The notes below the pieces were generated by a model. That model was not told where the DNA came from. It made no database searches and worked only from the letters and a program-made list of their open reading frames with translations. This document shows, one piece after another, positions 1 to 30,168 of a DNA stretch of 64,000 nt (positions are counted from its first letter, which is position 1; each line of letters begins with the position of its first letter). A program made the position numbers and the translations under genes. This stretch comes from a virus (lineage: Duplodnaviria; Heunggongvirae; Uroviricota; Caudoviricetes), in the IMG/VR virus record IMGVR_UViG_2718218135_000001, positions 1-64,000 of that record. One strand, given 5' to 3'.

Positions 1-5
1 CAATT

Positions 6-3731
<3,726 letters not shown>

Positions 3732-3903
3732 TCTACACTCGCGGCATTGGAAGCAAAGATATGGTCGTCTGGCACCTGATGCACATTGATAAGGCTATCA
3801 ACCACACGCTGGAGAAGTTCTTTCCACCAGCCTGAACACAATGATTGTGCGCCTTATAGCGCCCATTAAGATAGATAAGTACTTACCAACAAGGAGAAAA
3901 CAC

Positions 3904-4179
3904 ATGAAGACTTTGGTTCGCATTTCATCTAGTACCGACTATGACGTTTACCCGTTGTTCATGATCAAGTGCGACGGGCTGAACGATGAAGAAATTCAAG
4001 CGGCAATTGAACGCAATCTAGTTGAATACACAGGAATGGATGCGGATTCTATTTATATCGATGATGACGGTGTTTGTTGGCACAAAGGTAGCTGCTGGTA
4101 CGTCGACGACACAATGCTGGTAAGCGATGAAGACGCGGCCCATCTTGAGCGCATTTTGGGTATCAGCACTTTTGAGTGA
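3904..4179 (+). CDS. hypothetical protein
   Basis: ORF 3841..4179; preferred start is the internal ATG at 3904 preceded by aaggag; a copy of the AAGTACTTACC palindrome lies just upstream. Confidence 0.4.
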   Translation: MKTLVRISSSTDYDVYPLFMIKCDGLNDEEIQAAIERNLVEYTGMDADSIYIDDDGVCWHKGSCWYVDDTMLVSDEDAAHLERILGISTFE

Positions 4180-4218
4180 TATTTACAGCAAAATATATAA
4201 GTTAGCATTTACCTATCA

Positions 4219-4398
4219 TGAAAATTTTATTAGATATCACGTTACTTATTATCTCGATAGCCTTTGTGCTCGACTGCATCTTCACAGGGGCAATCCGTAA
4301 AGCGCTGGCGCCTGTTAATGATGTGATGATCAATGCGCTGGCCGTAGTACTGGTCTTCGACTCAGCATTAGGCGTTTTCAAAGGAGTCGTGGCATGAA
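4219..4398 (+). CDS. small hydrophobic (membrane) protein, 59 aa
   Basis: Read by eye, below the ORF-track size cut-off: MKILLDITLLIISIAFVLDCIF...; its stop overlaps the next ATG (ATGA). Confidence 0.3.
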
Positions 4399-4729
4399 GA
4401 AAACAGCCCTGGTACTGGCGCTGCTCACTCTCCCCGTCTTTGCGGACACACATGTCTATGAGTGCGAAATGTTTGTGGTCGAAGCGAAAAACGGCCTGAT
4501 CCGCAACGTCGTTAAAGCTAATTACGGCGCGATGGTTGTGGACCGCGGCGAACAGTTTTATGTGGTACGCGATGATCGCGTCCTGTCTTCCCCGTTTCTC
4601 ACTAAACGTAACGGCGAACTATCTGGCGTAGGTAAAGATAGGTTCGTTTACAACAAATCGGGTGATGTATACGGCGTTCACGCGAAGAACGACAGCTACC
4701 TTTTCGATGACTGCAAGGAGATTAGTTGA
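4394..4729 (+). CDS. secreted hypothetical protein
   Basis: N-terminal signal-peptide-like segment MKKTALVLALLTLPVFA; RBS ggag upstream. Confidence 0.5.
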   Translation: MKKTALVLALLTLPVFADTHVYECEMFVVEAKNGLIRNVVKANYGAMVVDRGEQFYVVRDDRVLSSPFLTKRNGELSGVGKDRFVYNKSGDVYGVHAKNDSYLFDDCKEIS

Positions 4730-4941
4730 TGGCGGTTACACTGACAGGTCTGGAAATCGAAAAAACAAGCGGCTACTGGCGTGCCAAAGGGTTCAAGCAG
4801 TCCGGCGTACTGGAACGACGGGAACGTGAAGATGGGTATATTGTCCACCAGCGACGTGAATGGCGCATGTACGATCCGGAAACAGGTAAGCTCGCAACGA
4901 AGGCCGGGACACTCTGGGGTCTGCTGAAGAAAATCCACTGA
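4726..4941 (+). CDS. hypothetical protein
   Basis: 71 aa ORF whose start overlaps the preceding stop. Confidence 0.35.
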   Translation: MMAVTLTGLEIEKTSGYWRAKGFKQSGVLERREREDGYIVHQRREWRMYDPETGKLATKAGTLWGLLKKIH

Positions 4942-4944
4942 TAA

Positions 4945-5545
4945 CACTATCCACTGCGGTGAGTAGCCAGCTCACCGCGTGTGAATCCAGCTCATAACCA
5001 CTGTAGCGAGTAGAACACCCTTCAGGTATGCACCCCAACCACTGTAGTGAGCAAACCCTCTGCCACGATATCAACTATCCACTGTAGTGAGTAAATTGGT
5101 GATTATCGGGGTCGCTATACACTGTAGTGAGTAAACAGGCGTTCACTGACTACAAACAACCACTATAGAGAGTGATGGAATGCCCCCTCCAGCGGATATC
5201 CACTATGGAGAGTAAATCTTCGCTGTTTTAAACGGATATCCACTCACTACAGTGGATAGAGGTCAAGTCAGCCAATTCTGCTCTTCACAGTGGATAGTCA
5301 ACAATGAGGAGAGCGACGATAACCGCTGTAGAGAGTAGACTTAACAGAGATACCCAGTGACCGCTAACCTCTCAGCCCTTGTTTTATCTATGTTTGCAAC
5401 CACTAACATTTACTTCGCGATTTGTGCGCACTGCCTACAGTGGTTATTCTTCGGTTTCTTTTACTCACTACAGTGGATATTGCATTTCCGATAAACAAAA
5501 AGGCTCACTACAGTGGATAGTGAGCCTTTTTACTCTCTACAGTGG
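4945..5545. repeat. Iteron array downstream of repA (incA-like), at least 13 copies of a ~17-19 bp repeat in both orientations
   Basis: Repeated ATCCACTGTAGTGAGTA and variants (ccactgcggtgagta, ccactatagagagtga, actcactacagtggata) spaced ~35-45 bp. Confidence 0.8.
5496..5533. terminator. hairpin terminator at the 3' end of repA
   Basis: aggctcact...agtgagcct stem flanked by an A-run and a T-run; the stem is itself built from an iteron. Confidence 0.5.
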
Positions 5546-5550
5546 TTGGG

Positions 5551-6606
5551 CTATTTGCGAGCCTTTGCCTTGCGCAGCTCTTCGAGAATCGCCAGTTCTT
5601 CCTTGCTCAACATGACCATTTCCCCGTCTTTTTCTTCAGGGGCAACATCGATAATGTCCTCCGGATCATCACCTGGCAAGATATCTTCTGGCTCTTCAGG
5701 CGTAGCCATAGATGGCGGCAGTGCCGAACGTAACTTCGGCCGTCTATAGTGGATGACGAAGTAGACCGAGCTGCCGCGTTTCACTTCAGTGTAATCGAGA
5801 TAGCCGATCTCTCGCAGCTGCTCCATCGCCTTCCTGACTGTCGCATTCTGGGTAATGGTGCGGCTGGTTAAGTTAAGTCTGGCGCGTAAGCGAGCCAATG
5901 AGATTGGCGCCGGGTCTGGTGGCAAACTTTCAATGAAGGTGTAGAGCGCCTGCGCGGATTCTTTTCTGGAGAGTTCGTTGATGGCCCGAAGTTGCAAAAG
6001 CACCTTTTTGTCGAACTGGTAAAGTTCGAAAATCTTAGGATCGGCCTTCAGTTCGACCGTGTCATTCTTGGTACTGTACTTTGCCGTCTGCACAAGGTGC
6101 GTAACGTAATACTCTTCAGAGCCTTTGCTGCGGAATGAGATGGTGTTTGTGGCGATACGACTTAGAGAGCTGTCCAGGCGCTTACGTAACTTCGCGGACG
6201 ATCTGGCTGTTGGTATGCCACAAAGTCTGACGAACTCGACGAACGGCAACGTGACGGTGTCACCAACAACCTTGTGCTTGGCGAACGCGTGGATGATGCC
6301 CACCCATGTTTTGAAATCGTTATCCATATCAAGACGAAGACCAGCAATCCTTATATCCTCGTACCCTTCGGCTTTGGCCAGAGACAGCTGTTTGAGTTCA
6401 GCGGAGGCGTCCATAGAGACCATTTGCCCCTTTCTACCCCTGGATGTCGATTTCAGCGTCGGAACGAAGAGACCAAGACGCATCAGAGCAACAGGCTGAA
6501 CTGTGTTGTTGGTGTTAGGAACTAACGTAACAACTTCGCCGGTCTTTTTGTCTGTTTCGGAAAATGCTTCGCTTATCGCAATGTTTTTATTGTCGTTTAC
6601 GCTCAT
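5551..6606 (-). CDS. repA: RepA-like iteron-binding replication initiator
   Basis: 351 aa ORF flanked on both sides by iteron arrays, the classic RepA/incC/incA arrangement of iteron plasmids such as P1; the protein itself was not matched to a family. Confidence 0.6.
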
Positions 6607-6639
6607 TCCAAATGTCTCTTTTTATTCGACGGCTTGGGT

Positions 6640-7165
6640 GCCTTTACTGATTACAGTGGATAGTAGCACCCATCACAGTGGTTATCCTACCGCCTACAGC
6701 GGTTTTTCTACTCTCCATAGTGGTTGATTTACTCTCTATAGTGGTTGTTATTCTCACTATAGTGGATATCGATAACCTCTAAAGCCATGTGGCACAACGG
6801 TTTGCAGGGGCCGGGGATCTCTTTGGGTCTTTGTGGTTCTCTTTGGTTCTAACAGGGATCTGAATTACTGGATCGAGCCTGTGTATAAAAATCAGATAAT
6901 TACAAAATCAGGCATCACTCCCCTTCTGGGGATAATGTGTGATCGAAATAAACACGCCGCAACGCAAAATTTACAATATTTCCAAGAATATCAGCCATCT
7001 GCCGCAGAAAAACAGGCTCGGAGTTATCCAGTTAAAACATTGTCTCCTACTCACTACAGTGGATACCGACTACTCTCCAGAGAGGTTGTTTTGCTCTTCA
7101 TAGCGGTTATTATGCTCTCTACAGTGGTTATTTTGCTCTCTATAGTGGATAGTAACCCCTTCTCA
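6640..7165. repeat. Iteron arrays upstream of repA (origin/incC-like) with GATC clusters
   Basis: About 7 iterons (6650-6780) and about 5 iterons (7048-7160), same family as downstream; GATC-rich blocks lie between and after them. Confidence 0.75.
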
Positions 7166-7348
7166 AGCCAGTAACCGCAAGCGCTGGAGACGATCGGGGA
7201 TCTCTTTTGATCTTCTGTAGGATCTCTCTGGGGATCTAAATATTGGATCGGGCCTGTGAATAAAGTGAATAAGTAAACAGGCATTTGCAAACTCCGGTGC
7301 GCCTTATCCGTTATCGTTGCCCCGGACAAAATTATTTGAACAAGAATT

Positions 7349-7993
7349 ATGGATCTTAAACGCACGCGCTGGGTTCGCCGTCTTGAAGATGGCTCCTACA
7401 CCATTGAATCAAACACTAGTCTGAACAAACAGAAGTTGCTCTGCGACCTTTGCGGCATTGCTTCGAAATGCCCGATTAACGAAACCCGGCTTAAACTCCA
7501 CGACGCCGGTGCGCATTTCCACCTAAACAGCTGCATACGTTACGTGCCACTACTAGCATTTCGTAAACCGATCATCGGATTGGATGCTCCCTACTTCAAC
7601 ACACTGCGCTCTGGTGTCACTTGGCGAGATCGTGTCGAACCTGGCAAACTCGTTTGTCTGGTTGAAGCTGATACCGGAAATGTCATCCGGTTCGGGAGAG
7701 TTGATAAGGTCTACTCAGGCCCGGTGGATGAAATGCTGCGGAAACACAGCCGATTTAACCATCTCTGCATGGGCGGAGAGAAGATTGAGAAGGTTGGCGA
7801 AGTAATTCGCAAATCTTACGGACACTTTCTGAATGATAACAGCCTTCTGACAGCCATTTACATTCGCCATGTCGATCGGGAGTTCGACACGGAGTATCAC
7901 AGTGCTGAAGAGTTGAATCTTGTAGACCCTCGTCCAAAAGCTGGGGTAATAGACATCAGCAGAGCGCGTCAGAAGCCCTCAGAGACGTTTTAA
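7349..7993 (+). CDS. hypothetical protein
   Basis: 214 aa ORF, no motif recognised. Confidence 0.45.
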   Translation: MDLKRTRWVRRLEDGSYTIESNTSLNKQKLLCDLCGIASKCPINETRLKLHDAGAHFHLNSCIRYVPLLAFRKPIIGLDAPYFNTLRSGVTWRDRVEPGKLVCLVEADTGNVIRFGRVDKVYSGPVDEMLRKHSRFNHLCMGGEKIEKVGEVIRKSYGHFLNDNSLLTAIYIRHVDREFDTEYHSAEELNLVDPRPKAGVIDISRARQKPSETF

Positions 7994-8389
7994 AGGCAAA
8001 CTCATGCTTTTTACCGGGCATAAAATATGGTGTCTTAGAAAGACACTGAGAGCTTTAGGGATTAATGCATGAGTGAATTTTATTCAAGAGCAGAAACTGT
8101 GGCCGACGGATGCGTTTGAAGACGACGCACGCAAACGCCGTAAATGTCATCTCACAACTTCACCGTCCGTTCTCCTTTTTCATTTCTTGTCATCAGTAAA
8201 TGACTGCTCTCATAAAATTGCTTGTGACGTTTAGAAATCATTGCTGCCCTATCTGATAGGTATTTACTTACTTATTTTTTTGTCATTATCATGTGCCTTT
8301 ATATTCTTTTGTGTGCCGTGTTGTCTGGGTTGTACGCCTCTTATGCACGCTTAGAATTTGTATCAAAATAACCACAAAGGAAAAGACAC

Positions 8390-9475
8390 ATGACATTGCC
8401 ATACGGGGTAATATCAGATCCCCATTATCATCGTTGGGATGCTTTTGCGACAACAAACGCTGACGGGCTTAACTCTCGGCTGGAGATCCAACTGGACGCT
8501 ACGAAGGAGGCGGCCAAAGCGATGAAAGCTGCTGGCTGTAAGCACATGCTGGTAGCTGGTGATACCTTCCATGTTCGCGGTGCTATATCACCTTCCGTTC
8601 TGCATTTCGTGACCGAAACTTACGAGTGGATCATCAAAGAGTTGGGTCTCAAGGTGGTAATGCTGGCTGGCAACCACGACCTCGAAACCAACGATTCCGT
8701 ATACAGCGCCAATGCAGCAGCCTCTCTGCGCTCAATCGGTGTGGAAATCGTCTGCGGCAAACGTCCTCATTCCATCAAAATGGGCGACGTAACCGTCCAT
8801 CTGATTAGCTGGCGTAATAACCACGCAGAACTTATCAGCGATCTCAAAACGCTGCGTTCCGGGCTGGATGGTGACAACCATGATGTTGTTGTACATACCT
8901 CAATCAACAAAGCGATCCCCACCATGCCCGATGTCGGCATCGACGCACAGGAACTGAAAGATATCGGCTTCCGTTTATTGTTGTCCGGGCACTACCACAA
9001 CCACAAAGAAGTGCTGCCTGGAGTGGTAAGTATCGGGGCGCTGACACACCAGAATTGGGGGGATGTTGGTTCACTGGCCGGCTTCATGATCGTCAAACCG
9101 GACGGCTCATTCACTCACCACGAAACCTCGGCACCTAAATTCGTGAACCTTGAGGACGATGTAGATGACGATCAGATTCGCGGCAACTACGTGCGCTTCC
9201 GTGCCGTTGTTGAGAGCGATGAAGAAGGCATCAAACTTCAGAACGTCCTGAAAACAATGGGCGCGAAGGGTGTCGTCTGCAACTTCATTCGCAAGGCATC
9301 GATGATGGAAGGCGCTGCCAGTACTGCGGAAACCAGCAAAATTGACAGCCTGGGAGAGTCCGTTGCGGCGTACTGCAAGATCGTTCACGACACTGACGGT
9401 GGCTTCGACCTGAGCAAGCTGGACATACTGTGTCAGGAGATCTTGACCGAAGCAGAGAGTGCGGAGGCTGTGTGA
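8390..9475 (+). CDS. sbcD: SbcD/Mre11-like metallophosphoesterase nuclease
   Basis: Calcineurin-like phosphoesterase motifs GDTFH, GNHD, GHYH; paired with a downstream SbcC-like ATPase. Confidence 0.75.
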   Translation: MTLPYGVISDPHYHRWDAFATTNADGLNSRLEIQLDATKEAAKAMKAAGCKHMLVAGDTFHVRGAISPSVLHFVTETYEWIIKELGLKVVMLAGNHDLETNDSVYSANAAASLRSIGVEIVCGKRPHSIKMGDVTVHLISWRNNHAELISDLKTLRSGLDGDNHDVVVHTSINKAIPTMPDVGIDAQELKDIGFRLLLSGHYHNHKEVLPGVVSIGALTHQNWGDVGSLAGFMIVKPDGSFTHHETSAPKFVNLEDDVDDDQIRGNYVRFRAVVESDEEGIKLQNVLKTMGAKGVVCNFIRKASMMEGAASTAETSKIDSLGESVAAYCKIVHDTDGGFDLSKLDILCQEILTEAESAEAV

Positions 9476-9516
9476 GGCAACGTTATTATGGGAGCTTTCG
9501 AGAGTTTGCCATCGTG

Positions 9517-9708
9517 ATGAAAAAACTTCAAAAAGGCCAGACGGTTATGTTTCACAAGCCATACCCTTCAGGAGGAAATCCCGTAGCGTTTTATCTTGGA
9601 AGGCTAACCAGAAAAGGCTTATTGAATCGCAGATCCTTCCCCGCGCATACGGAGTTCAGATTGAAAGATGGTCAAAAGTTAACACACGATATCAGAGGTG
9701 TTATATGA
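9517..9708 (+). CDS. small hypothetical protein between sbcD and sbcC
   Basis: Internal ATG of ORF 9430..9708; stop overlaps the sbcC ATG (ATGA). Confidence 0.25.
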   Translation: MKKLQKGQTVMFHKPYPSGGNPVAFYLGRLTRKGLLNRRSFPAHTEFRLKDGQKLTHDIRGVI

Positions 9709-11621
9709 AGTTTTTAAAGCTCCAGGTTGAAAATTTTATGGCAATCGCCAGCGCAGAAGTCGAGTTAGACCAGCGTGGACTGGTGCTGATCCAGGGTGTG
9801 AACAGTGGCGATACGTCTGCTGCCAGCAATGGCGCCGGGAAATCCACTCTGATGAATAGCTTAATGTGGTGTCTGTATGGTGAGACTGCACATGGCGTCA
9901 AAGGCGATGACGTGCTGTCGACGGGCCATGAGAAGAACTGCCGTGTGATGGTTACAGTTGAAGACGAAGGTAAGAAATACGCGATCATTCGCCATCGTAA
10001 ACACAAAGAGTTCAAGAACCGACTAATCGTCCGTGGTGAAGACGGTGATATGACCAAAGGCAAGGACACGCTGACACAGACGTTCGTAGAACGTCTGATT
10101 GGGGCATCGAAAGAGGTGTTCATGGCGTCCATCTACGCCAGTCAGGAAGCGATGCCAGATCTGCCCGGTATGTCCGACAAGAGCCTCAAAACCATCGTTG
10201 AAGAAGCTGCTGGCGTCGACCGATTGACGCGAGCCTATGCCATTGCCCGCGAGCGTGCTAATGCAGCTGCCGCACGTATGGACGTTACCAAATCCAAAAT
10301 GGACGCCTGTCTCACGCTTATCGAGACTGCACAGTCAGAGATTGAGGCGGCCAAAGCGTCCTCTGAAAGCTGGGAGCGCGATCGCGGCGAGCGTCTGGAC
10401 AAGGCCCGAGCCGATTTGGCTGGCGCGGAGGTAACACTGTCTGAAGTCGAGATGGAAATTCGCTCGCTGCCGGAACAGATCCGTGATACGGAAAACGCGA
10501 TTGCTGGCGAACGCAGCAAGCTGGCCTCCAAAGAAGAGCATGACGCCAAACTGCTGAAGGTGCGCAGTGCTATTACTGAGATCCGCTCAAGCATCCGTAC
10601 TTCAGAAGCGGCACAGAACGAGTCGATAAACCGTGCTCGCTCGTTTAAAACCAAAGCTGAAGAGGTCAGCACAAAGATCGGGGCACCCTGCATTACGTGC
10701 GGAAAGCCCTACTGCGAAGAAGATTTATCCACGGTGAAGGAGAGCTTCATTGAACAAGCGCGCAATGAGATCGGCCTTGCGCAGACATCAGCAGCGGCAG
10801 TGGCTCAACACAAGGCTCGTCTTGAGAAAGCGCTCGGTATCGAGTCTGCACTGGTCGCAGCCACACCCGACGTCTCAGAAATCATCTCCACAATAGAACG
10901 CCTGACCAATGAGCTAAGTGCGCTGCGTCATCGCGAACGTGAAGTTGTGGCCGTCGAAGCGATGGTTGCGCGGGCGCGTACTGAAGTGAATCGCATCATG
11001 GCGGAAGCAAACCCATTTCTGGCCGTTATTAAGCGCCATGAAGACAACCTGGCTGCCAATAAATCTAATCATGCAGTACTTAAAAATGAGTTAAAGAGCA
11101 TTCAGGAACAGGCTCTGTTGCTGGAGAAGGCCCGCCAGGTTTACTCCCCAGCAGGCGTGCGTTCACACATCCTGACCTCCGTTACGCCTTTCCTGAACAT
11201 CAGGACTGCGGAGTATCTCAACACGCTGTCGGACGGCAATATCGTTGCCGAATGGTCGACAATGGAGACAACGAAGAAAGGTGAGTATCGCGACAAATTC
11301 AATATCAGCGTAATCAAAACAGGCTCCAGCAAATCCTTCCAGACTTTGTCTGGTGGTGAGAAGCGTAAGGTACGTATTGCGTGCTCTCTGGCTTTGCAGG
11401 ATCTGGTTGCCAGTCGCGCCAGTAAGAATATCGAGCTATTTATCGGTGATGAAATTGACGACGCGCTCGACACAGCCGGTCTGGAGCGTCTCATGGGGAT
11501 TCTGGAAGCCAAAGCGCGTGAACGTGGCACAGTGATGATCATCTCCCATAAAGAGATGAAATCGTGGTTCCGGGAAATTATCACTGTCGAAGTTAAAGAG
11601 GGGCGCAGCTATGTCGTTTAA
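9705..11621 (+). CDS. sbcC: SbcC/Rad50-like SMC-type ATPase
   Basis: Starts at the internal ATG (MKFLKLQVENF); Walker A GAGKST, long coiled-coil middle, C-terminal signature/Walker B LSGGEKRKV...LFIGDEID. Confidence 0.8.
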   Translation: MKFLKLQVENFMAIASAEVELDQRGLVLIQGVNSGDTSAASNGAGKSTLMNSLMWCLYGETAHGVKGDDVLSTGHEKNCRVMVTVEDEGKKYAIIRHRKHKEFKNRLIVRGEDGDMTKGKDTLTQTFVERLIGASKEVFMASIYASQEAMPDLPGMSDKSLKTIVEEAAGVDRLTRAYAIARERANAAAARMDVTKSKMDACLTLIETAQSEIEAAKASSESWERDRGERLDKARADLAGAEVTLSEVEMEIRSLPEQIRDTENAIAGERSKLASKEEHDAKLLKVRSAITEIRSSIRTSEAAQNESINRARSFKTKAEEVSTKIGAPCITCGKPYCEEDLSTVKESFIEQARNEIGLAQTSAAAVAQHKARLEKALGIESALVAATPDVSEIISTIERLTNELSALRHREREVVAVEAMVARARTEVNRIMAEANPFLAVIKRHEDNLAANKSNHAVLKNELKSIQEQALLLEKARQVYSPAGVRSHILTSVTPFLNIRTAEYLNTLSDGNIVAEWSTMETTKKGEYRDKFNISVIKTGSSKSFQTLSGGEKRKVRIACSLALQDLVASRASKNIELFIGDEIDDALDTAGLERLMGILEAKARERGTVMIISHKEMKSWFREIITVEVKEGRSYVV

Positions 11622-19419: not shown

Positions 19420-20013
19420 ATGATCGCAGCCGAAAAAATCAAAAAGCGAGAGCGTGATGCCTCTCTTCGCGGCCTTTGGCGCACACCGCAGTGGTTGTTT
19501 GTCGCCATCCAACGTTACATAGGCGTAAAGTTCGATGTGGACGTCGCCTGCAACAAAGATAATGCTCTCCTGCCGAACTTTATCGGTGTTGAGCGTGATG
19601 CGCTCAAGTGCAGTTGGGGAGAACCTGGCACTGTGGTGTTCCTTAACCCGCCCTACTCCAAAATCACCCCCTGGATAGATGCAGCCATTCGCGAGCAGGC
19701 GCGTGGAGTGACGACGGTCATGCTGATACCACAATCCCTCGATACGCAGTGGTACGAGCGTGCGGCTGAATGCGCCAACGAAACCGTCATCTTGTCTGGC
19801 GGCCGCGTGGCGTTCGTTGAGCCGGATGTTGAACTTGGGCTGGTGGAGGTGAACATCAACCCTGGTGGCAGCATGTTGCTTATCTTCCGTGGCTACTGTC
19901 AGGAAGCTGGGCACACCATCAGCAAGATACCGCTGGCGGTGATGAAAAAGCTGGGTGGTTATGACCCTGCCAATGTAGTCAGGAAGAAGAGACCACGTAA
20001 AAAGGCAGCGTAA
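19420..20013 (+). CDS. DNA N6-adenine methyltransferase (phage Dam family)
   Basis: Catalytic FLNPPYS motif; about 197 aa. Confidence 0.65.
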   Translation: MIAAEKIKKRERDASLRGLWRTPQWLFVAIQRYIGVKFDVDVACNKDNALLPNFIGVERDALKCSWGEPGTVVFLNPPYSKITPWIDAAIREQARGVTTVMLIPQSLDTQWYERAAECANETVILSGGRVAFVEPDVELGLVEVNINPGGSMLLIFRGYCQEAGHTISKIPLAVMKKLGGYDPANVVRKKRPRKKAA

Positions 20014-20017
20014 ACAC

Positions 20018-20133
20018 CAGTCTGGGAGTTAGTTTGAGAACCTGCTTCCGTATATATAAATAACTAAGTACTAATTATTAATATATACAGACGCAGGCTT
20101 TTTAAGAAGTGATTTCCAAACAACTCCCAGACC
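20018..20133. repeat. ~115 bp nested imperfect palindrome (paralogue of 45534-45630)
   Basis: Outer arms agtctgggagtt / aactcccagacc, inner arms aacctgcttccgtatatat / atatatacagacgcaggctt, centre ctaagtactaa. Confidence 0.6.
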
Positions 20134-20215
20134 GTTTTACACCTCCAGAACCCACTGGAACCCCTCTCCAGACGCTCTAGAATCGATTTTATGAACCACA
20201 GTAAGGAAAACTATC

Positions 20216-20446
20216 ATGGTATACCCGACGAACGTCGTAGCGCTCGTTGAGAGCGATTTTCTGGCCACAGTGCGCGACATGATGAAAGATCGCGATAAGG
20301 CTTTCAGTCTCTACGAATGGTCGCTCAAATGTCTTCATTCAGGCGAGCACAAAGAGCTGGTGGAGCAGCTGTTAGGGGAACTCATCAATGAGGTGTTTGC
20401 CCTGAACGTCCAGCTTCATGGGCGAGAAATTAATCAATCAATATAA
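20216..20446 (+). CDS. hypothetical protein
   Basis: 76 aa ORF with RBS aaggaaa; followed by a palindrome copy at 20447-20464. Confidence 0.45.
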   Translation: MVYPTNVVALVESDFLATVRDMMKDRDKAFSLYEWSLKCLHSGEHKELVEQLLGELINEVFALNVQLHGREINQSI

Positions 20447-21160
20447 TAGGTAAGTACTTACCATTCAAAACACCACTAACCAGTGATACAATCTATCCGC
20501 TTCCGGATACTTTCGGCAGCTCGACCTGATGGGTGGGGGACAGCGTCACTGGCGTCAGGTTTAAAAAAGCTCACTACCAGCGTAGAACCGGCACCGTTTA
20601 GGGGTTGGGGAAGGGGGAACCAAAGTGGGCAGAGAGAAGGGTCACTTTATGATTGTCGAGTCTGGAGTGTTTCGAGAGGTTGAATCCAGTACTCCCCTTC
20701 ATAAAGTGTGGGAAGATCTCGGTTCTGGGGTGCTGTCATCCATAACTTCCCAAGCCTAAGCTGGCAGTAGACTTAGGTCATAACTTTTCAGGTTATGAAA
20801 CGACCAGGTTGGTGAGGAAATTTTGTACTCACCTCCCTGGGAGAGTATTACCTGAAAAGACAACCTCTCACTTCGTTCGAGGTGAACTTCACTCACTTCG
20901 TTCGTTCAGTTCAGGTTTTATTAAAACCTGTTCTGGGAAGTAAGTTTTTCTTTTCTAAAAAATTTTTAATATTTACACGCACGCGTACGCGCACAAGCGA
21001 GGGAAAAAAACCTCCCCTTGTAATGTCCTCAATGTGCCAAAAGCGGCCTGTCATGCCTGCTTAAAAGACGGATTTAGCGTAGGATATTTTCCGTCTTCCA
21101 GGCGGGCCCCCACTACGATGACACAAAAGGAATTTTGGATTTAAATATCAAGGGGATCAA

Positions 21161-21337
21161 ATGCCTGATCACGTATTCTCCGGCACAGCATTCAACGTTG
21201 ATGCAGCGGTTCGTTTATTATGGAGTGACGAAAAATGGGGCTTTGTGGATGAGGCCTTTGAGATTACGAATGTAGTGTCTGATATTGATGATGATGGGTA
21301 CGACGAAACTTGGTTTGAAGAAGCTGAAAACATTTAA
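21161..21337 (+). CDS. small acidic hypothetical protein (58 aa)
   Basis: ATG after aagggga, read by eye (below ORF-track cut-off); followed by a gtaggcctgtac...gtacaggcctac hairpin. Confidence 0.3.
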   Translation: MPDHVFSGTAFNVDAAVRLLWSDEKWGFVDEAFEITNVVSDIDDDGYDETWFEEAENI

Positions 21338-21455
21338 TAACAGTAAGTAGGCCTGTACCTAGTACAGGCCTACCATTAAGTATTTTCTGGTCGCCAAAAG
21401 CGCTCAAGAACTCCATCAGGCGAAAACAAAAAACAACGCCGGATCGGGTCTGCGC

Positions 21456-22004
21456 TTACTTTAAGTTACACCCTGCCCGGAAGGCGTTACCAATCTCAAT
21501 ATATTCAGCTCGCGCATAGCCAGCAAGCTTCTGCGCTTCGCTGTTAAATTTGATCTGATCACTGGAACATTTTGACGGTGTAGCCTGATAACCGCGCTGG
21601 CACATGTTTACGATGACCGACGGATCCGCAAATTGTGAGCGCTGGGCATAGGCATTACACACTGCTGATACCCTAGCTTGCTTCTGTCGGGTACTCAGTT
21701 CTGGGGCTGCGGCTGTGGTCGCTGACCTCACCTTGTAGCAATTCAGGTGACGAGAGGCGATCTCCTGCTCTGTTGCCTTATGGAATATCCATTTGTCCTG
21801 GTATTCCGGTCTGTTCGGCCCCATGCCACCCAGTTCTATCGCAGCAGAATACTCAGTATTACAAAGGCGCAGATCGTCATATTTCGCCACCTCTGCTGCT
21901 GCCAGAGCTGTTCTATCCGGCTGCGGTGTTGCGTGTAGTTGGCTGACACAGCCCGCCAGCATAAAGCCAACAGCAAGTGCCAGCGTAGTTTTTAAAATCG
22001 GCAC
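21456..22004 (-). CDS. putative lipoprotein
   Basis: Lipoprotein-type signal sequence MPILKTTLALAVGFMLAGC. Confidence 0.5.
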   Translation of the reverse strand: MPILKTTLALAVGFMLAGCVSQLHATPQPDRTALAAAEVAKYDDLRLCNTEYSAAIELGGMGPNRPEYQDKWIFHKATEQEIASRHLNCYKVRSATTAAAPELSTRQKQARVSAVCNAYAQRSQFADPSVIVNMCQRGYQATPSKCSSDQIKFNSEAQKLAGYARAEYIEIGNAFRAGCNLK

Positions 22005-22018
22005 TAATCGACTCCGTT

Positions 22019-22339
22019 TTAGGTCTTGTCTTTTGGAGGCATGCTGATGAATTCTAGGTATTCCATTTCCGACTCATCGTGGTTCAAGAAAATTGACACG
22101 GGTAGTTCAGGAAAGCGATCCCACTCGTGGTGCATACCGTCCAGGAAACAGAGTTGCTCTTCTGTCACGACCTTTGGGAAAGGCCATTTATCCTACATCC
22201 CGTAGTTACACGCGAAAATAAACGCCTCAGTTGGCTTGTCTTCCTGTGATTTCGGTTCGTCGTAATCGCTGAAAGAGAAATCACCACGCACCTCACGTGA
22301 ATATCCATTCTTCAACTGCCAGTTAACATCTGAACCCAT
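22019..22339 (-). pseudogene. small gene interrupted by an in-frame amber codon
   Basis: Minus frame reads MGSDVNWQLKNGYSREVRGDFSFSDYDEPKSQEDKPTEAFIFACNYGM-TAG-DKWPFPKVVTEEQLCFLDGMHHEWDRFPELPVSIFLNHDESEMEYLEFISMPPKDKT; TAG at 22193-22195. Confidence 0.3.
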
Positions 22340-22741
22340 ACATACCTCACAGATTGGGGTCAGTTTGGATATCGAAAATTATTGTACGTTAAGTAAGAGG
22401 GCTTGTGAACTGCTCCCTGTTGATTAACACGCCACAATGCTAGTAATGCGGCTATCTGGCTACGAGATTAACTGCGAACTTCCGCTCATCGCTCAAAGCC
22501 GACTTAGCGTGTGACCGCCTGGCTAAGATCACCGCCTACTCCGCAGCAGATATGCCTCACAAGCGTGACATTCGATTTTTGTCACAAAATAATAAGTAAG
22601 TATTTACCTACCATTTTAAATCAGGTATCTTATCGCTTGTAAGGATGACGAAGTACCGGTTAGGTACTGTTCCAGGATGGAACGCCAAAAGGCGGCTGGC
22701 TTGGCCAGCCGCAACTCTTTCTGACACTGAATGGAATCCAA

Positions 22742-23248
22742 ATGGCACGTCAAACGCCTTTCACTTCTTTCAATAAACGTCCCCGTTCAATTCGCCTGGT
22801 TCTGGCCGAGCTGTTTAGCGGTCGTGTTTCTGCACGCCTTGCGGAACTGGAAGAACGAGTGTTTGAGCTGGAGAAGCGCATTGATGCGCAAGCTACCGCC
22901 ATAGCAAATCTGGGCGCGACAGTAGGCATGGAGAAGGTGCGTGATTCCGTCGCCTCTCGTGTGTTGCGTGAATCCCGGGCACACAAGGAAAGTTCTCATG
23001 GAAAATTTTCAACGAAATCGACTGAAGCCAATGGCCTACGGAGTAATTTTAGCAACCCTGGCAGCGGTAGCCGTGCCAGCCGGTCAGAGTCTGTTGATAC
23101 CGGACACAACTACTTCCACCACAACCTCGCAGACGACCCCCTGCCAGAACGACCTCCTGTCTCTCTGGATGGGATGCTGCTGGACACGATTCCAGCTCGA
23201 CCTGCAACTCCGGATCTTCCTTCTGCTGTGACTGAGGCTATTGCATGA
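22742..23248 (+). CDS. hypothetical protein
   Basis: 168 aa ORF, coiled-coil-like N-terminus. Confidence 0.45.
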   Translation: MARQTPFTSFNKRPRSIRLVLAELFSGRVSARLAELEERVFELEKRIDAQATAIANLGATVGMEKVRDSVASRVLRESRAHKESSHGKFSTKSTEANGLRSNFSNPGSGSRASRSESVDTGHNYFHHNLADDPLPERPPVSLDGMLLDTIPARPATPDLPSAVTEAIA

Positions 23249-23433
23249 AATTGAGCTTCCAGAAAGTCACCGTCATGATTGTTGGCCTCGCCATTTTTCT
23301 GCTTGGTGGCTGGATCATGAATCTGGTGAAACTCGTGAACGGTGGCGATCTTCATTTTGATGCCGGAATGACACTTGCGCGTGTCGTGGGCATTTTCGTT
23401 GTTCCGGTGGGCAGCATTCTCGGATTTTTTTAA
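23245..23433 (+). CDS. small membrane protein (two predicted TM helices)
   Basis: 62 aa, hydrophobic stretches VTVMIVGLAIFLLGGWI and VVGIFVVPVGSILGFF; overlaps upstream stop. Confidence 0.4.
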   Translation: MKLSFQKVTVMIVGLAIFLLGGWIMNLVKLVNGGDLHFDAGMTLARVVGIFVVPVGSILGFF

Positions 23434-23550
23434 CAATTAATACCTTCAGTGTGGGCGTCCGCCTTTACGTAGCGTTTGCCCACCTTTTCAGTCACGCCAC
23501 AATAACGCCATCGAGAAAACAACTTGTTTAAAAACATAAGGAAAAAACAC

Positions 23551-24123
23551 ATGTGCGAAAAATGCAAAAAAAATAATGCCAAAGTTGAAAGCGTGATTAA
23601 AAAAGTTGGAGCGGCCGAACTGGTTGAGATTATGAGTCTTGTGGTTGGTCACGAAGATGACGCCTCCCCTATCGACCGCCTTTTCAGCGTTCTCAAGTTC
23701 TCAAGCATGATTGATGATCCGATTGAAATTGTGATGCTGGCGCGTCATTTCGGCGAAGCGTATCTGGAAGAGAAAGAACGCGCCGACAAACTTCAGGCAA
23801 CTCTGGAAATGGTAAGCAAGCCGAAGTGCTCACCGGATTCAGTCAAGGCAGATGAAACCAACGCCAGCAAAGATCGTGAAATCGCCGGGTTGAAGTCTTC
23901 TCTGGCGATGTTGCTGGCCGCCTTCAAACTGATGTCTTCCCAGGCTGGATTCAAAATGCCTGAGCTGAACAGCGACGATCCGATGGCCGTTCGCCAGCTG
24001 CTGGGGGCAATGGCCGACCAGCTTGACGACACCAAGAGCCGTCTTGAAGACATGATGCGCGAGCTGACCCATCGCCACGACCTGAACAAACAGCCGCAAA
24101 AGATGCAGCCTTTACATCATTAA
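23551..24123 (+). CDS. hypothetical protein
   Basis: ATG preceded by aaggaaaaaa; the track start at 23524 is a TTG inside the upstream palindrome and is rejected. Confidence 0.5.
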   Translation: MCEKCKKNNAKVESVIKKVGAAELVEIMSLVVGHEDDASPIDRLFSVLKFSSMIDDPIEIVMLARHFGEAYLEEKERADKLQATLEMVSKPKCSPDSVKADETNASKDREIAGLKSSLAMLLAAFKLMSSQAGFKMPELNSDDPMAVRQLLGAMADQLDDTKSRLEDMMRELTHRHDLNKQPQKMQPLHH

Positions 24124-24125
24124 TA

Positions 24126-24156
24126 TATAGGGGGCAAAGCCCCCTATTCTACTTTG
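24126..24156. terminator. bidirectional hairpin terminator
   Basis: atagggggc-aaa-gccccctat between convergent genes. Confidence 0.55.
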
Positions 24157-24568
24157 CGGCGTCTAACAATAAGCCGCAATTTTCGCTCATGTATGCCGCA
24201 GTTGCCGGATTGCCTCTGTCATTATTCGAATTGTTCATTTCAGGGTGAGCGTCCCAGGCCACTGATTCCTGAGATGATAGATAGACGGCAAAGTCGACGA
24301 TTTCATCATCTCCGGTTTTAACGTTGCCAAGCAATTCATTTGCCTTTCTCCAGTGCTTCAGCGCGAGAATTCTGAACTGTTTTGCATTTTCAGCAGGCAC
24401 TGCACTGGATTTGTCTGTGTAGATATTCGATATGTCGGCATAAAGAGCGCATTTAACATAGCTGGTTGCCCTGCCGGTCTCTTTAAAACCTTGCTCTGTG
24501 TTGTTGGCGTAGACATTCACAGCAAAAGCGCTGGCAATTCCCAGCAATATAATTTTCTTCATCATCAT
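24149..24568 (-). CDS. secreted hypothetical protein
   Basis: Signal-peptide-like MMMKKIILLGIASAFAVNVYA. Confidence 0.45.
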   Translation of the reverse strand: MMMKKIILLGIASAFAVNVYANNTEQGFKETGRATSYVKCALYADISNIYTDKSSAVPAENAKQFRILALKHWRKANELLGNVKTGDDEIVDFAVYLSSQESVAWDAHPEMNNSNNDRGNPATAAYMSENCGLLLDAAK

Positions 24569-24714
24569 TACTCAATAAGGAGGCGACAAATATCTTACGT
24601 GTAGTTGTCAGTTGAGTATTAAGCAAACTCAATAAATTTATAAGTATCTCCCTGTGCAGCCTGTGAATCCTTATTTATTACCTACTCAATTTTGAAATAA
24701 TAACACCAACAAGA

Positions 24715-24727
24715 AAACAATTTGTTT
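24715..24727. promoter_or_regulatory. AAACAA-N-TTGTTT palindromic operator-like motif upstream of the large methyltransferase
   Basis: aaacaatttgttt, 13 bp before the ATG, preceded by the conserved block taacaccaacaag; same motif at 12 or more other sites. Confidence 0.45.
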
Positions 24728-24739
24728 AATGGTGCAATC

Positions 24740-26425
24740 ATGAATACAGCCCTTTCCATCATTGACGCTATCACTCCAAACACTGATATCGACTACCGGC
24801 AGGAAATGAACGTTATCCACGAAATTGTGGCCGAGTGCGAGAAAGAGATCGCATTCATGCATCAGGTTCACGACTTCGTTTATGGTGACGAACGCCACAA
24901 CATGATTAACCGCCTGCTGCGACTTAACCACCGGCCGGACGACGAGCGCACACGCTTTAACAGAACCTGGCTGGACAAAGTCGACCTGGAATGGGTGAAA
25001 CAAAATATCTGGGCCGAGTACTGGAAGAAGGTCACGGATATGACCAACGTTCTGCTGATCATGCCAGCATCCCGCCGCGACGAGTGGCGTGAACAGTTTA
25101 TCGAGGGCAAGCAGGAAACGATCAAGACTGACAGAACTGGCTATCAGATGAAGGTTAAAGAGTTCGTTGGTGTACCTGAGTTCAAAGCAGAAACGGTCAT
25201 ACCAACGATGCTTAATTTGCTGAATGACAGGCACAAATATCTCTCTGAGCGCGTGTATGGCTTGTTTAAGGCGTTGAGTCCTGCTCACAAGACCAATAAG
25301 ACGAACGGCTTCAGCGAGCGTCTGATCATCGCCGACTGCATTTCCGATTTCTGGCGGGACAGCGTCAGCGTTAACTACCGGAAAGAGGATTACATAGACG
25401 ACCTGCGCGTCATGTTGCATTTCTTTGCACACAAAGAATTTATCACCATCAACCGCACGGCCGAGATGCTGTCAGCTGCGTATCGAGCAAATGACTGCCA
25501 GACCGGCGACTGGATGAATGTCGACGGAAACCTGATGCGTGTGAAGATGTTTAAGAACGGCAACGTTCACTTTGAAATACATCCTGACGTAGCCTGGAAG
25601 CTGAATGAGGTGCTGGCTTACAGTATGCCCGCTGCAATCCCGGCTCCATGTCGTACTGCGCCCAAAACACGGGCACCAAAACAGTTCGGGTTAATCCAGA
25701 AGACGATCTCCGAGCCGGTGCGTACTGCGCTTCGCGACGGGCGATCTGGCAATGACAAACGCGTATGGTACTTCTCTGATTCCGGTCTCCAGAAGTCACA
25801 GGTGGAAGAGCTGGAGCGTACACTGAGCTTTATTGGCGGCGTGCAGGAGAACAAGCACTGGCAGTTCCCGTATGAGATCGGCCATACGCTCAATACGATT
25901 GTGGCCACCGGCTTAATACCGGATACAAAATCACACCAGTTCTACCCTACCCCGCGTTTGATAGCGGAGTACGTTGCCAGAGCCATCGAGCTGAAGCCAG
26001 GTGAGAAGCTGCTGGAGCCTGAAGCCGGGCGCGGAGATCTGCTGGCCTGCATCGACGCCAACCCGGAAGACGTCACCTGCATAGAAGTCGCGCCTCTCTT
26101 TGCTGATATCCTGCTTGGCAAGGGGTACACAAATACGGTCTGTTGCGACTTCATGAAGTGGTCTGAGGACAACGCAGGCTATCAGTTCGACAAAATCGTC
26201 ATGAACCCACCCTACTCTCTCGGTCGTCACAGAGAGCACACATTGGCCGCGCTGGGACATCTGAAAGTTGGTGGGCGCCTTGTTGCTGTTTTGCCGGGGG
26301 ACTCAACAACACTGAACTGGATGATGCTGGATAATTTCGTCTACGCCAAAGGTAAGTCGTTCACAGGCGAGTTTGATGACACGGGGATAACTGTCAGTGT
26401 ATACGTTTTCAAACGTGTAAAATGA
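24740..26425 (+). CDS. N6-adenine DNA methyltransferase with ~400 aa uncharacterised N-terminal domain
   Basis: C-terminal motif I LLEPEAGRGDL and motif IV IVMNPPYS; N-terminal two-thirds unassigned. Confidence 0.65.
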   Translation: MNTALSIIDAITPNTDIDYRQEMNVIHEIVAECEKEIAFMHQVHDFVYGDERHNMINRLLRLNHRPDDERTRFNRTWLDKVDLEWVKQNIWAEYWKKVTDMTNVLLIMPASRRDEWREQFIEGKQETIKTDRTGYQMKVKEFVGVPEFKAETVIPTMLNLLNDRHKYLSERVYGLFKALSPAHKTNKTNGFSERLIIADCISDFWRDSVSVNYRKEDYIDDLRVMLHFFAHKEFITINRTAEMLSAAYRANDCQTGDWMNVDGNLMRVKMFKNGNVHFEIHPDVAWKLNEVLAYSMPAAIPAPCRTAPKTRAPKQFGLIQKTISEPVRTALRDGRSGNDKRVWYFSDSGLQKSQVEELERTLSFIGGVQENKHWQFPYEIGHTLNTIVATGLIPDTKSHQFYPTPRLIAEYVARAIELKPGEKLLEPEAGRGDLLACIDANPEDVTCIEVAPLFADILLGKGYTNTVCCDFMKWSEDNAGYQFDKIVMNPPYSLGRHREHTLAALGHLKVGGRLVAVLPGDSTTLNWMMLDNFVYAKGKSFTGEFDDTGITVSVYVFKRVK

Positions 26426-28818: not shown

Positions 28819-30168
28819 AATACTGTTTATATGTGGGTCTTCCCCGATCATGGTGGGAAGGCTCAGAACTCCATATTCAGCTTACCGTAGTGGAACATCA
28901 CTCCCAGTTTAAAGCGCTCCCGGTTTCGGTATCCCCTGGCTTTTATTCTCAGCAACCTTATCTTGCTGTTAAGTGCCTCCGCATTTCCGTTTGAGACACT
29001 GTGTCGCATCGCATTCAGGATCCCGTACAGCCTTTTTCCTATCGTTTTCGCAGCATTTTTCATCATGGGAACGTCACTGTTAGCCGCCAGCGCCAGCCAT
29101 CTCTGCCAGTCACTCCGCCTTTCCTCGCTCCATGGCCTGTTCCAGATATCCTTTGCCAGCTCTTTCAGCGCCCAGCACTGGCTCGTCAGCTTCATCTGTG
29201 CACGCAGCCACATCAGCTTTTCCTGCCGGGATTCAGTCATCCACTTATCACTGTACTGCCACAGGAAGCGGGTTCCTTTTGCCTGGCGTCGGCTTTCAAC
29301 AGGGAGGTGCGGATGTTCATTCTGACGGGTTTTATCAACTACCTCGCCCAGTTGCTTCGCCACATGGAAGCGGTCAAAGGCGATTTTCTCAACCGCGCTG
29401 GGTAAGTGGATGCGCGCTGCTCTTATATAGCCCGCGTTCATGTCCATTGAGAGCGTTTTGATAGCCAGCAACTGCCCATCAGTGAGTGTGCGAAGATAGC
29501 CGGCAAGACTCTCTGTGCCGCGATCATCCGTTAAGGCCAGCGCCCGACCATCGCGATCGGAGATCACCGTTATGTAACGATGTCCTTTTTTAAAGGCGAC
29601 CTCATCCACATTCATATGACGGGCGGATAATGGCTTTTTTATCCGGGCAAGACCTCGCTTAACTGCCCGGGTCATAATGCCGTCAACCGCATTCCAGCTG
29701 AGCTTAAGTTGCTTCCTGACAGCATCAACGGTGCTGATTTTCAGCCATGAGAGAACGAACAATTCGAACAGCAACGTATACCGGCTTCCGGGGCCAGCCC
29801 ACGGAACAGGCAACGTCTGACAGCCATGCTCCGGACACATAATTCGTGGAACATCGGCTTCAACAATAGTGGTGAACTGGCAGGTATCAAGATGGCGCCA
29901 TTTACGATGACGGTGATCGTGAACAGAACAGGATTTACCGCAGGCCGGACAGGCTAGCCGGGTGTTTTCAGCGATCTCAATAGTGACAGTAACAGAACCG
30001 GCATTTTCATCGAGAGAAAGGGACTTTACCTGCCACGGATCGGACAGGTTGAGAATATGAGCGTAGAGGGACTTTTCGTCCATGGCGGTGACCTCTGGCG
30101 ATTAAATACACCATTATCATGCCTTCAGCCACCACAACAAGGGAAGACCCTTATATGTACAGTATTGC
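28819..30168 (-). mobile_element. ISL3-family insertion sequence (apparently intact)
   Basis: Imperfect ~27 bp terminal inverted repeats (aatactgtttatatgtgggtcttcccc / gggaagacccttatatgtacagtattg) bracket one transposase gene; target-site duplication not evident by eye. Confidence 0.7.
28863..30083 (-). CDS. ISL3-family transposase
   Basis: 406 aa; N-terminal zinc-finger CPACG...H..HRHRKWRHLD and DDE-type core. Confidence 0.8.
   Translation of the reverse strand: MDEKSLYAHILNLSDPWQVKSLSLDENAGSVTVTIEIAENTRLACPACGKSCSVHDHRHRKWRHLDTCQFTTIVEADVPRIMCPEHGCQTLPVPWAGPGSRYTLLFELFVLSWLKISTVDAVRKQLKLSWNAVDGIMTRAVKRGLARIKKPLSARHMNVDEVAFKKGHRYITVISDRDGRALALTDDRGTESLAGYLRTLTDGQLLAIKTLSMDMNAGYIRAARIHLPSAVEKIAFDRFHVAKQLGEVVDKTRQNEHPHLPVESRRQAKGTRFLWQYSDKWMTESRQEKLMWLRAQMKLTSQCWALKELAKDIWNRPWSEERRSDWQRWLALAANSDVPMMKNAAKTIGKRLYGILNAMRHSVSNGNAEALNSKIRLLRIKARGYRNRERFKLGVMFHYGKLNMEF

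Follow-up and report, generated by a model that had tools for sequence, protein, structure and literature searches.

Solitary adenine methyltransferases of phages and plasmids

Solitary methyltransferases are a standard means of restriction evasion in phages and plasmids, and several kinds of such enzymes have been described. M.EcoGIX and M.BceJIII are single-strand-specific methylases encoded in plasmid leading regions, and M.EcoGII is a non-specific adenine methylase of a prophage; all three remain silent while resident, and their presumed role is to overcome restriction upon entry (PMC7736820, PMC5778455). These are beta-class proteins of ~350 amino acids (aa) in which DPPY lies at the N-terminus, FxGxG at the C-terminus and the recognition domain between them (PMC7736820, PMC5778455). 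M.EcoVT2Dam, an enzyme of a Shiga toxin (Stx) phage, has GATC as its reported target (PMC6602927). Here we describe two solitary enzymes encoded by open reading frames (ORFs) A and B in a 64,000-nucleotide stretch of Caudoviricetes DNA (positions 1 to 64,000 of IMG/VR record IMGVR_UViG_2718218135_000001), hereafter the window. The coordinates given for the two genes in the original prediction, which had been made from the sequence alone, proved exact: ORF A occupies 19420..20013 and ORF B 24740..26425, both on the + strand, and both products contain NPPY. Both genes are near-identical to entries already annotated in databases, and orphan methylases of phages and plasmids being a well-known kind, the finding is ordinary in this respect.

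We consider it the best explanation, with a probability of about 0.6, that ORF A and ORF B are two independent solitary N6-adenine DNA methyltransferases of a phage-plasmid which would protect the element's own DNA from host restriction. The nature of the element is indicated by its relatives. The ~8-kb stretch around both genes is 98.9% identical to the E. coli plasmid pEC21Z137-115K, which is IncFIB and non-mobilizable, and Salmonella phage SSU5 matches the same stretch with 95% identity over 74% of its length. The annotation of pEC21Z137-115K comprises phage terminase, tail-fibre assembly, dnaE, primase, helicase and ligase, as well as thymidylate synthase, dihydrofolate reductase and a RepA replicon. 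Because of this identity to both a plasmid and a phage, together with the annotated phage, replication and RepA genes, the window is assigned to an SSU5/pHCM2-type phage-plasmid, and both methylase genes lie within the DNA-metabolism (replication and nucleotide-metabolism) region of the element.

ORF A is a small phage-type Dam

ORF A is intact and encodes a solitary small phage-type Dam-family N6-adenine DNA methyltransferase of 197 aa, with motif IV (NPPY, residues 76-79; 19645..19656, + strand) read from the translation. The NPPY tetrapeptide by itself is not statistically meaningful, but the profile matches are. PF05869 'Dam' matches ORF A with E=5e-36 and 124.3 bits (cut-off 28.1), the TIGR01712 equivalog 'phage_N6A_met' scores 108.4 bits and exceeds its cut-off of 97.05, and phrog_111 'DNA methyltransferase' matches with E=4e-62; the PADLOC models of orphan methyltransferases match as well. 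The Dam-family assignment made earlier for the smaller enzyme is thereby borne out by two models above their cut-offs. ORF A shares 98.9% identity with an SSU5 protein, 37% with the Dam enzymes of Stx2-converting phages and ~30% with those of many siphophages, and a sequence search for a related solved structure detected none. Judged by these matches, ORF A is an unremarkable small phage Dam.

ORF A most likely methylates GATC by analogy with M.EcoVT2Dam of the Stx2 phage VT2-Sa, with which it shares the ~170-200 aa size, the NPPY motif, the solitary state and the location on a phage. The 37% identity, however, is to Stx2-phage enzymes, possibly not to M.EcoVT2Dam itself, and at only this level of identity the likeness to Stx-phage enzymes does not establish GATC specificity. 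The non-specific methylases Hia5 and Hin1523 were considered as relatives of ORF A and dropped, the published account placing them in the alpha-class E. coli/T4 Dam lineage.

ORF B belongs to a widespread family of mobile elements

ORF B is intact and encodes 561 aa from an ATG, and an alternative TTG start at 24722 would lengthen the product to 567 aa. It is a solitary protein of the DUF4942-methyltransferase family: PF13708 DUF4942 matches residues 140-295 (E=1e-20, 74.5 bits, gathering threshold 25), phrog_6263, annotated in PHROGs as DNA methyltransferase, covers the protein end to end (E=3e-296), and a RefSeq 'DUF4942 domain-containing protein' is 99.6% identical. A homologue search in which 8,000 word-index candidates were scored returned 280 proteins at E<=1e-5, and an exhaustive search yielded 359 clusters across Proteobacteria (clustering at 50% identity, E<1e-30). 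Nearly all of the 150 listed cluster representatives are 494-604 aa long and aligned along most of their length, the few shorter ones looking like fragments. ORF B conforms to the typical layout of the family, which is ~510-580 aa with DUF4942 followed by a C-terminal NPPY methyltransferase core, and the members from Pseudomonas and Aeromonas phages share this layout.

The family is abundant on mobile elements. Homologues of ORF B were found by tblastn in about 2,575 PLSDB plasmids, including SSU5-type phage-plasmids of E. coli, Salmonella and Klebsiella, and the conjugative resistance plasmids IncHI1 and IncHI2 carry a homologue ~30% identical over the full length. In temperate Pseudomonas and Aeromonas phages, family members lie beside integrase, anti-repressor and other orphan methylases, and one phage-like contig also encodes a member. 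Prophage early genes recur next to the family in 56 diverse proteobacterial loci, namely, those for a CI-like S24 repressor, a Cro-like helix-turn-helix protein, RecT, YqaJ exonuclease and thermonuclease. The family is annotated in RefSeq and PHROGs but has no characterised member. Thus, DUF4942 proteins are very common, yet none has a known specificity, and their most conserved domain is without a structural relative; knowing their targets or role would fill a gap in methylome annotation and could help to account for the host range of mobile elements of clinical relevance.

Four-part architecture of ORF B

Conservation, charge and structure divide ORF B into four parts. Conservation, expressed as positions at least 95% identical, was computed over 155 family representatives, and the structure was modeled with AlphaFold2 on a 31-sequence alignment, giving a mean predicted local distance difference test score (pLDDT) of 83 and a predicted template modeling score (pTM) of 0.66. 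Residues 1-87 (24740..25000, + strand) form a variable, acidic, mostly helical N-terminus (isoelectric point (pI) 5.2) with predicted helices at residues 19-48 and 52-62. Distant homologues are only 10-30% identical in this segment, in which the number of positions conserved at 95% or more is zero.

Residues 88-310 (25001..25669, + strand) correspond to the conserved basic DUF4942 core, with a pI of 8.4 in ORF B and 8.9 in the family. Distant homologues retain 38-42% identity here, and 27 positions are at least 95% identical. The near-invariant positions include R164, S180, H183, T185, N186, D221, R223, D262, H277 and N289, and a further set is conserved at 85-95%, namely, E170, E279, H281 (from the HPD motif, H281-P-D283) and R305. 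ORF B keeps all of the family residues H183, T185, N186, D221, R223, D262-G263, G274 (in the KNGN turn), H277, HPD 281-283 and N289, which are 85-100% conserved among the representatives. The invariant HKTN loop of the core has low pLDDT and is therefore probably flexible.

Residues 311-394 (25670..25921, + strand) comprise a Pro/Lys-rich linker followed by a small variable alpha/beta module (pI 9.2, family 7.7), a candidate specificity element. This is the most variable part of ORF B, with the highest entropy and 21-33% identity in distant homologues. Finally, residues 395-561 (25922..26422, + strand) constitute a minimal N6-adenine methyltransferase Rossmann core of gamma order (pI 5.6, family 5.2), in which 19 positions are at least 95% identical, fewer than the 27 of the DUF4942 core. 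Motif X (QFYPTP, residues 400-405; 25937-25954, + strand), motif I (EAGRGD, residues 428-433; 26021-26038, + strand) and motif IV (NPPY, residues 489-492; 26204-26215, + strand) follow one another in the order X - I - IV, which is that of the gamma class, and the Rossmann fold superposes on solved gamma-class members. All methyltransferase motifs of ORF B lie within its last ~167 residues, in agreement with the earlier placement of the S-adenosylmethionine motif I only in the last ~170. Together with the Pfam and TIGR models, the PADLOC profiles show that both ORFs are of the N6-adenine methyltransferase type, as had been predicted.

ORF B differs from the known gamma-class enzymes in the position of the non-catalytic part. 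M.TaqI, M.BseCI, CamA and Type I HsdM (PF02384) have the recognition domain C-terminal to the core or outside it (HsdS), whereas ORF B has 394 unrelated residues on the N-terminal side and no recognition domain after the core. Only 69 residues follow NPPY in ORF B, and they hold the last Rossmann strands; a C-terminal recognition domain of the kind usual in the gamma class would not fit there. ORF B occupies the same niche of plasmids and prophages as the orphan m6A methylases M.EcoGIX, M.BceJIII and M.EcoGII, but it has motif I before NPPY and a DUF4942 domain which those enzymes are without; a relationship to M.EcoGIX or M.EcoGII was ruled out, both being beta-class DPPY enzymes. The best match of the core in the defence library is mad2 of the MADS system (PADLOC; residues 394-533, E=5e-15). 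The match to this 492-position profile is confined to the catalytic core (positions 265-417), and there are no other MADS genes nearby.

These matches also bear on the substrate. ORF B might act on RNA (rRNA, tRNA or mRNA adenine) or on protein and not on DNA, but we regard this as very improbable. The QFYPTP motif X together with NPPY best fits models of DNA methylases, with E values as low as 5e-15 for PADLOC MTase_II and mad2. Members of the family come only from phages, plasmids and the early regions of prophages, often with other DNA methylases alongside, and PHROGs labels the family as a DNA methyltransferase. DNA is thus the probable substrate of ORF B.

The N-terminal region of ~400 residues had originally been described as unassigned, and domain search and structure prediction had been proposed as a check. 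The description does not hold for residues 140-295, which are DUF4942, but it stands in so far as DUF4942 is itself a domain without known function. The check matched DUF4942 and returned no characterised recognition domain; the N-terminal 395 residues gave a confident model, yet no solved structure in the PDB matched it.

The catalytic half of ORF B is exchanged as a cassette

Over residues 1-310, ORF B shares 95-97% identity with P0044 and P0045, two proteins from the SSU5-like group, but only ~50% over residues 311-561. This drop in identity indicates that the C-terminal half, comprising the variable module and the catalytic core, has been exchanged by recombination as a cassette onto a constant DUF4942 half. 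The mosaicism and the conservation pattern both speak for a DUF4942 core that is constant and does the same job in every member, and against a variable domain which reads sequence. Should target choice differ between members, residues 311-394 and a variable loop at ~520-540 would be where the differences lie.

Three other apparent rearrangements were considered and rejected. An exchange of the first ~62 residues with other methylases had been suggested by matches H64 and H66, but in H64, the one inspected, the gene is truncated after ~71 codons. Stand-alone DUF4942 proteins of 340-410 aa are also found, but most of those inspected result from frameshifts that truncate the protein and leave an out-of-frame tail, and no separate gene for a methylase follows. 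The C-terminal cassette seemed to be fused to other N-terminal domains in phage proteins named 'Lar family' or 'RE endonuclease', which are actually ordinary full-length DUF4942 members.

Some short copies deserve mention in their own right. In the SSU5-like Klebsiella pneumoniae plasmid NZ_CP107355.1 (positions 4001-8180 of locus L005), the DUF4942 methylase gene is reduced to a 71-codon stub, and directly downstream, in the opposite orientation, lies a Type I restriction-modification (R-M) operon (hsdR, hsdS). The situation may be similar in several other Klebsiella plasmids, whose matches to ORF B are limited to its first ~62 residues. A Pragia fontium prophage (positions 6001-7143 of locus L010) encodes a 380-aa DUF4942 protein which ends just past the variable module and lacks the methyltransferase core. 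Its gene belongs to the early region of a lambdoid prophage, in which a PF05869 Dam follows 1.4 kb downstream, and it may be a natural DUF4942-only variant, other short copies being frameshifted.

The strong conservation of the DUF4942 core raises the question of whether ORF B is bifunctional, with the core contributing a second activity, either catalytic (such as that of a nuclease or another enzyme that modifies nucleic acids) or that of an effector (such as an anti-defence protein), in fusion with the methyltransferase cassette. Its 27 positions at 95% identity or more are mostly polar or charged and outnumber those of the catalytic domain, the invariant HKTN loop is probably flexible, the fold is without a PDB relative, and the independent swapping of the C-terminal half relative to residues 1-310 suggests two functional units. 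However, no Pfam, PADLOC or structural match connects the core to any enzyme class, its basic charge fits simple DNA binding, and DUF4942 was almost never found without the methyltransferase half, the short copies inspected being mostly truncated by frameshifts, whereas an autonomous activity would not be expected to need that half. We therefore consider a second activity unlikely. A broader proposal is to be held just as tentatively: that DUF4942 is a new functional domain with a fold unlike solved structures, providing either a second enzymatic or anti-defence activity or a non-canonical mode of targeting (sequence-independent, structure-coupled or replication-coupled). If it were true, an uncharacterised mechanism of counter-defence would be common to thousands of phages, phage-plasmids and IncHI resistance plasmids.

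Neither methyltransferase has a restriction partner

That the two enzymes are independent and solitary is supported by their surroundings. The ten ORFs neighbouring the methylases have no Pfam matches and include no nuclease, and PADLOC gave only a weak match to the unnamed model PDC-M48B (E=0.003) for the ORF at 23524-24123. No hsdS-like neighbour of ORF B was found, nor was a recognisable endonuclease domain N-terminal to its methylase, the arrangement by which a Type IIG/IIC enzyme was sought. The neighbours of the ORF B homologues in the 56 loci include no conserved gene and no recurring nuclease, and the apparent large clusters of neighbours in this set are antisense shadow ORFs inside the methylase gene.

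The window does encode a restriction protein at its left edge. HsdR (6-3023, + strand) is a complete-looking protein of 1005 aa with HSDR_N, SWI2_SNF2/ResIII and T1R_D3 domains, and its presence on the same element would allow one of the methylases to be the modification half of an R-M system whose nuclease lies elsewhere. However, in plasmids 99.7% identical over window positions 1-5500, hsdR stands at the end of an hsdM-hsdS-DUF4268-hsdR operon, which supplies it with a methylase of 809 aa. By this comparison the phage-plasmid carries its own Type I R-M system, the rest of the operon lying just left of the window, and HsdR was excluded as a partner of ORF A and ORF B, from which it is separated by 16-21 kb. 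Relatives of the element carry genes for a 'restriction endonuclease' and a DUF262 protein in the interval between the two methylase genes, which were likewise rejected as partners: they are Mrr-like and GmrSD, next to IS110 elements. Mrr-like and GmrSD enzymes are modification-dependent Type IV enzymes and therefore cargo, not cognate partners, and none of these nucleases recurs beside ORF B homologues. A split R-M system is thus hardly credible. With its own methylase assigned to HsdR, and no neighbouring or recurrent nuclease, both ORF A and ORF B are genuinely solitary, and the absence of an adjacent restriction partner noted in the original prediction is upheld, the HsdR ~16 kb upstream having its own HsdM and HsdS in relatives.

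A putative role in protection from host restriction

Judged by their context, an anti-restriction role is the most likely one for both enzymes. ORF A and ORF B would be expressed with the replication genes, and the element's own DNA would be methylated by both during lytic replication or establishment. Restriction enzymes of the host that are sensitive to m6A would then fail to cut, and the element would survive in new hosts. ORF A, probably GATC-specific, may also keep repeats at the origin methylated. In ORF B the acidic catalytic core is without a recognition domain, and therefore DNA binding would have to come from the N-terminal 394 residues. The basic conserved DUF4942 core could act as a constant nucleic-acid-binding platform, for which we count the contrast in charge across the family (pI 8.9 for the DUF4942 core against 5.2 for the catalytic core), and the hypervariable module at residues 311-394 may tune target choice together with the loop at ~520-540.

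Several points weigh against this explanation. Dam is already present in the E. coli and Salmonella hosts, and a GATC-specific ORF A would therefore add little protection there. More near-invariant positions, many of them polar, are found in the DUF4942 core than in the catalytic domain, and such conservation looks more like that of an active or ligand site than of a passive DNA-binding surface. The PF02384 N6_Mtase match, spanning ORF B residues 400-439, is below the gathering threshold of 20.4, reaching 15.3 bits with the full-length sequence and 20.0 bits with the core alone. Finally, a search of the open-access literature found DUF4942 in only five papers, a single time in each and never in a title or abstract, and no characterisation of it, and a literature search on SSU5/pHCM2 methylomes found nothing useful.

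A P1-like origin with clustered GATC sites

Phage P1 is likewise a classical phage-plasmid; its plasmid origin and pac site are Dam-dependent, and it encodes a Dam-type methylase. The element analysed here resembles P1 in being a phage-plasmid with a RepA/iteron origin flanked by clustered GATC repeats and with an element-encoded adenine methylase. It differs in that the P1 enzyme is a large fusion protein of unrelated architecture. The repA gene is located at 5551-6606 (minus strand), with two sets of iterons upstream, at 6640-6790 and 7046-7160. The iterons are spaced by ~21 bp, as part of a P1/RepFIB-like origin in which the whole ~380-bp unit is duplicated, and each set is followed by short GATC-rich repeats. 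The densest block, next to the second set (7183..7250, no strand assigned; repeat families D3-D5 and D8), contains 6 GATC in ~68 bp and is a candidate substrate of GATC methylation; a weaker copy follows the first set at 6812-6885. In a scan of GATC sites, the background was 4.47 per kb and the best 300-bp window held 7 sites. ORF A may thus also serve this GATC-rich P1-like origin.

One may go further and suppose that ORF A, ORF B or both serve mainly in epigenetic regulation, with origin firing, copy number, packaging or the lysis-lysogeny switch under their control. The repA origin with its two GATC-associated iteron sets, and above all the block at 7183-7250, would fit such a role, as would the location of both genes in the replication and nucleotide-metabolism module and the proximity of ORF B homologues to repressor genes in prophage early regions. 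On the other hand, GATC in Enterobacteriaceae is already methylated by the host Dam, the overall frequency of GATC is not enriched but mildly under-represented (observed/expected ratio 0.82), and no repeated candidate target of ORF B was identified. Moreover, with a Dam-type gene within 10 kb of only 5 of the 56 ORF B homologues, there is no general coupling between the two kinds of enzyme. On the same count we rejected a functional coupling of the DUF4942 enzyme to Dam, which had been suggested by their co-occurrence in SSU5-type elements, IncHI1/IncHI2 plasmids and the Pragia prophage. A mainly regulatory function is accordingly doubtful, and less probable than a second activity of DUF4942; protection from host restriction is preferred.

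A Dam gene does accompany the family on the IncHI2 and IncHI1 plasmids (positions 6351-10635 of locus L002 and 6288-10569 of locus L003), where the DUF4942 homologue is ~1.8 kb from a divergent alpha-class Dam of the PF02086 type. The pair sits between RepB/tra genes and RepHI2.

Genes surrounding the methyltransferases

Scans of the 19-28 kb region with Rfam and for promoters and terminators gave nothing above chance. The interval between the two methylase genes, 20014-24739, is a cargo hot spot among SSU5-like plasmids. In the relatives compared (L171 and L172), it holds an Mrr-like Type IV nuclease, the GmrSD (DUF262) Type IV enzyme, IS110/IS4321, and a Rha regulator or RNase H. In the window itself, only small hypothetical ORFs occupy it, with ORF-free gaps of ~700 bp at 20447-21160 and 22005-22741.

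Directly 3' of ORF B, the segment 26484-27173 (+ strand) is one ORF of 229 aa in the closest plasmid. In the window it is interrupted by a premature in-frame stop (Tyr127 to stop), which leaves ORFs of 126 aa and 93 aa, and its first ~90 codons are far more divergent than the remainder. An intact ISL3-family (ISKox3-like) transposase gene of 406 aa is located at 28863-30083 (minus strand), ~2.4 kb downstream of ORF B, and the closest plasmid has a copy too. Immediately after hsdR, a 228-aa ORF (3038-3724, + strand) contains an rve integrase-core domain; PLSDB lists no coding sequence at this position in related plasmids, and the ORF is probably a remnant of an insertion sequence.

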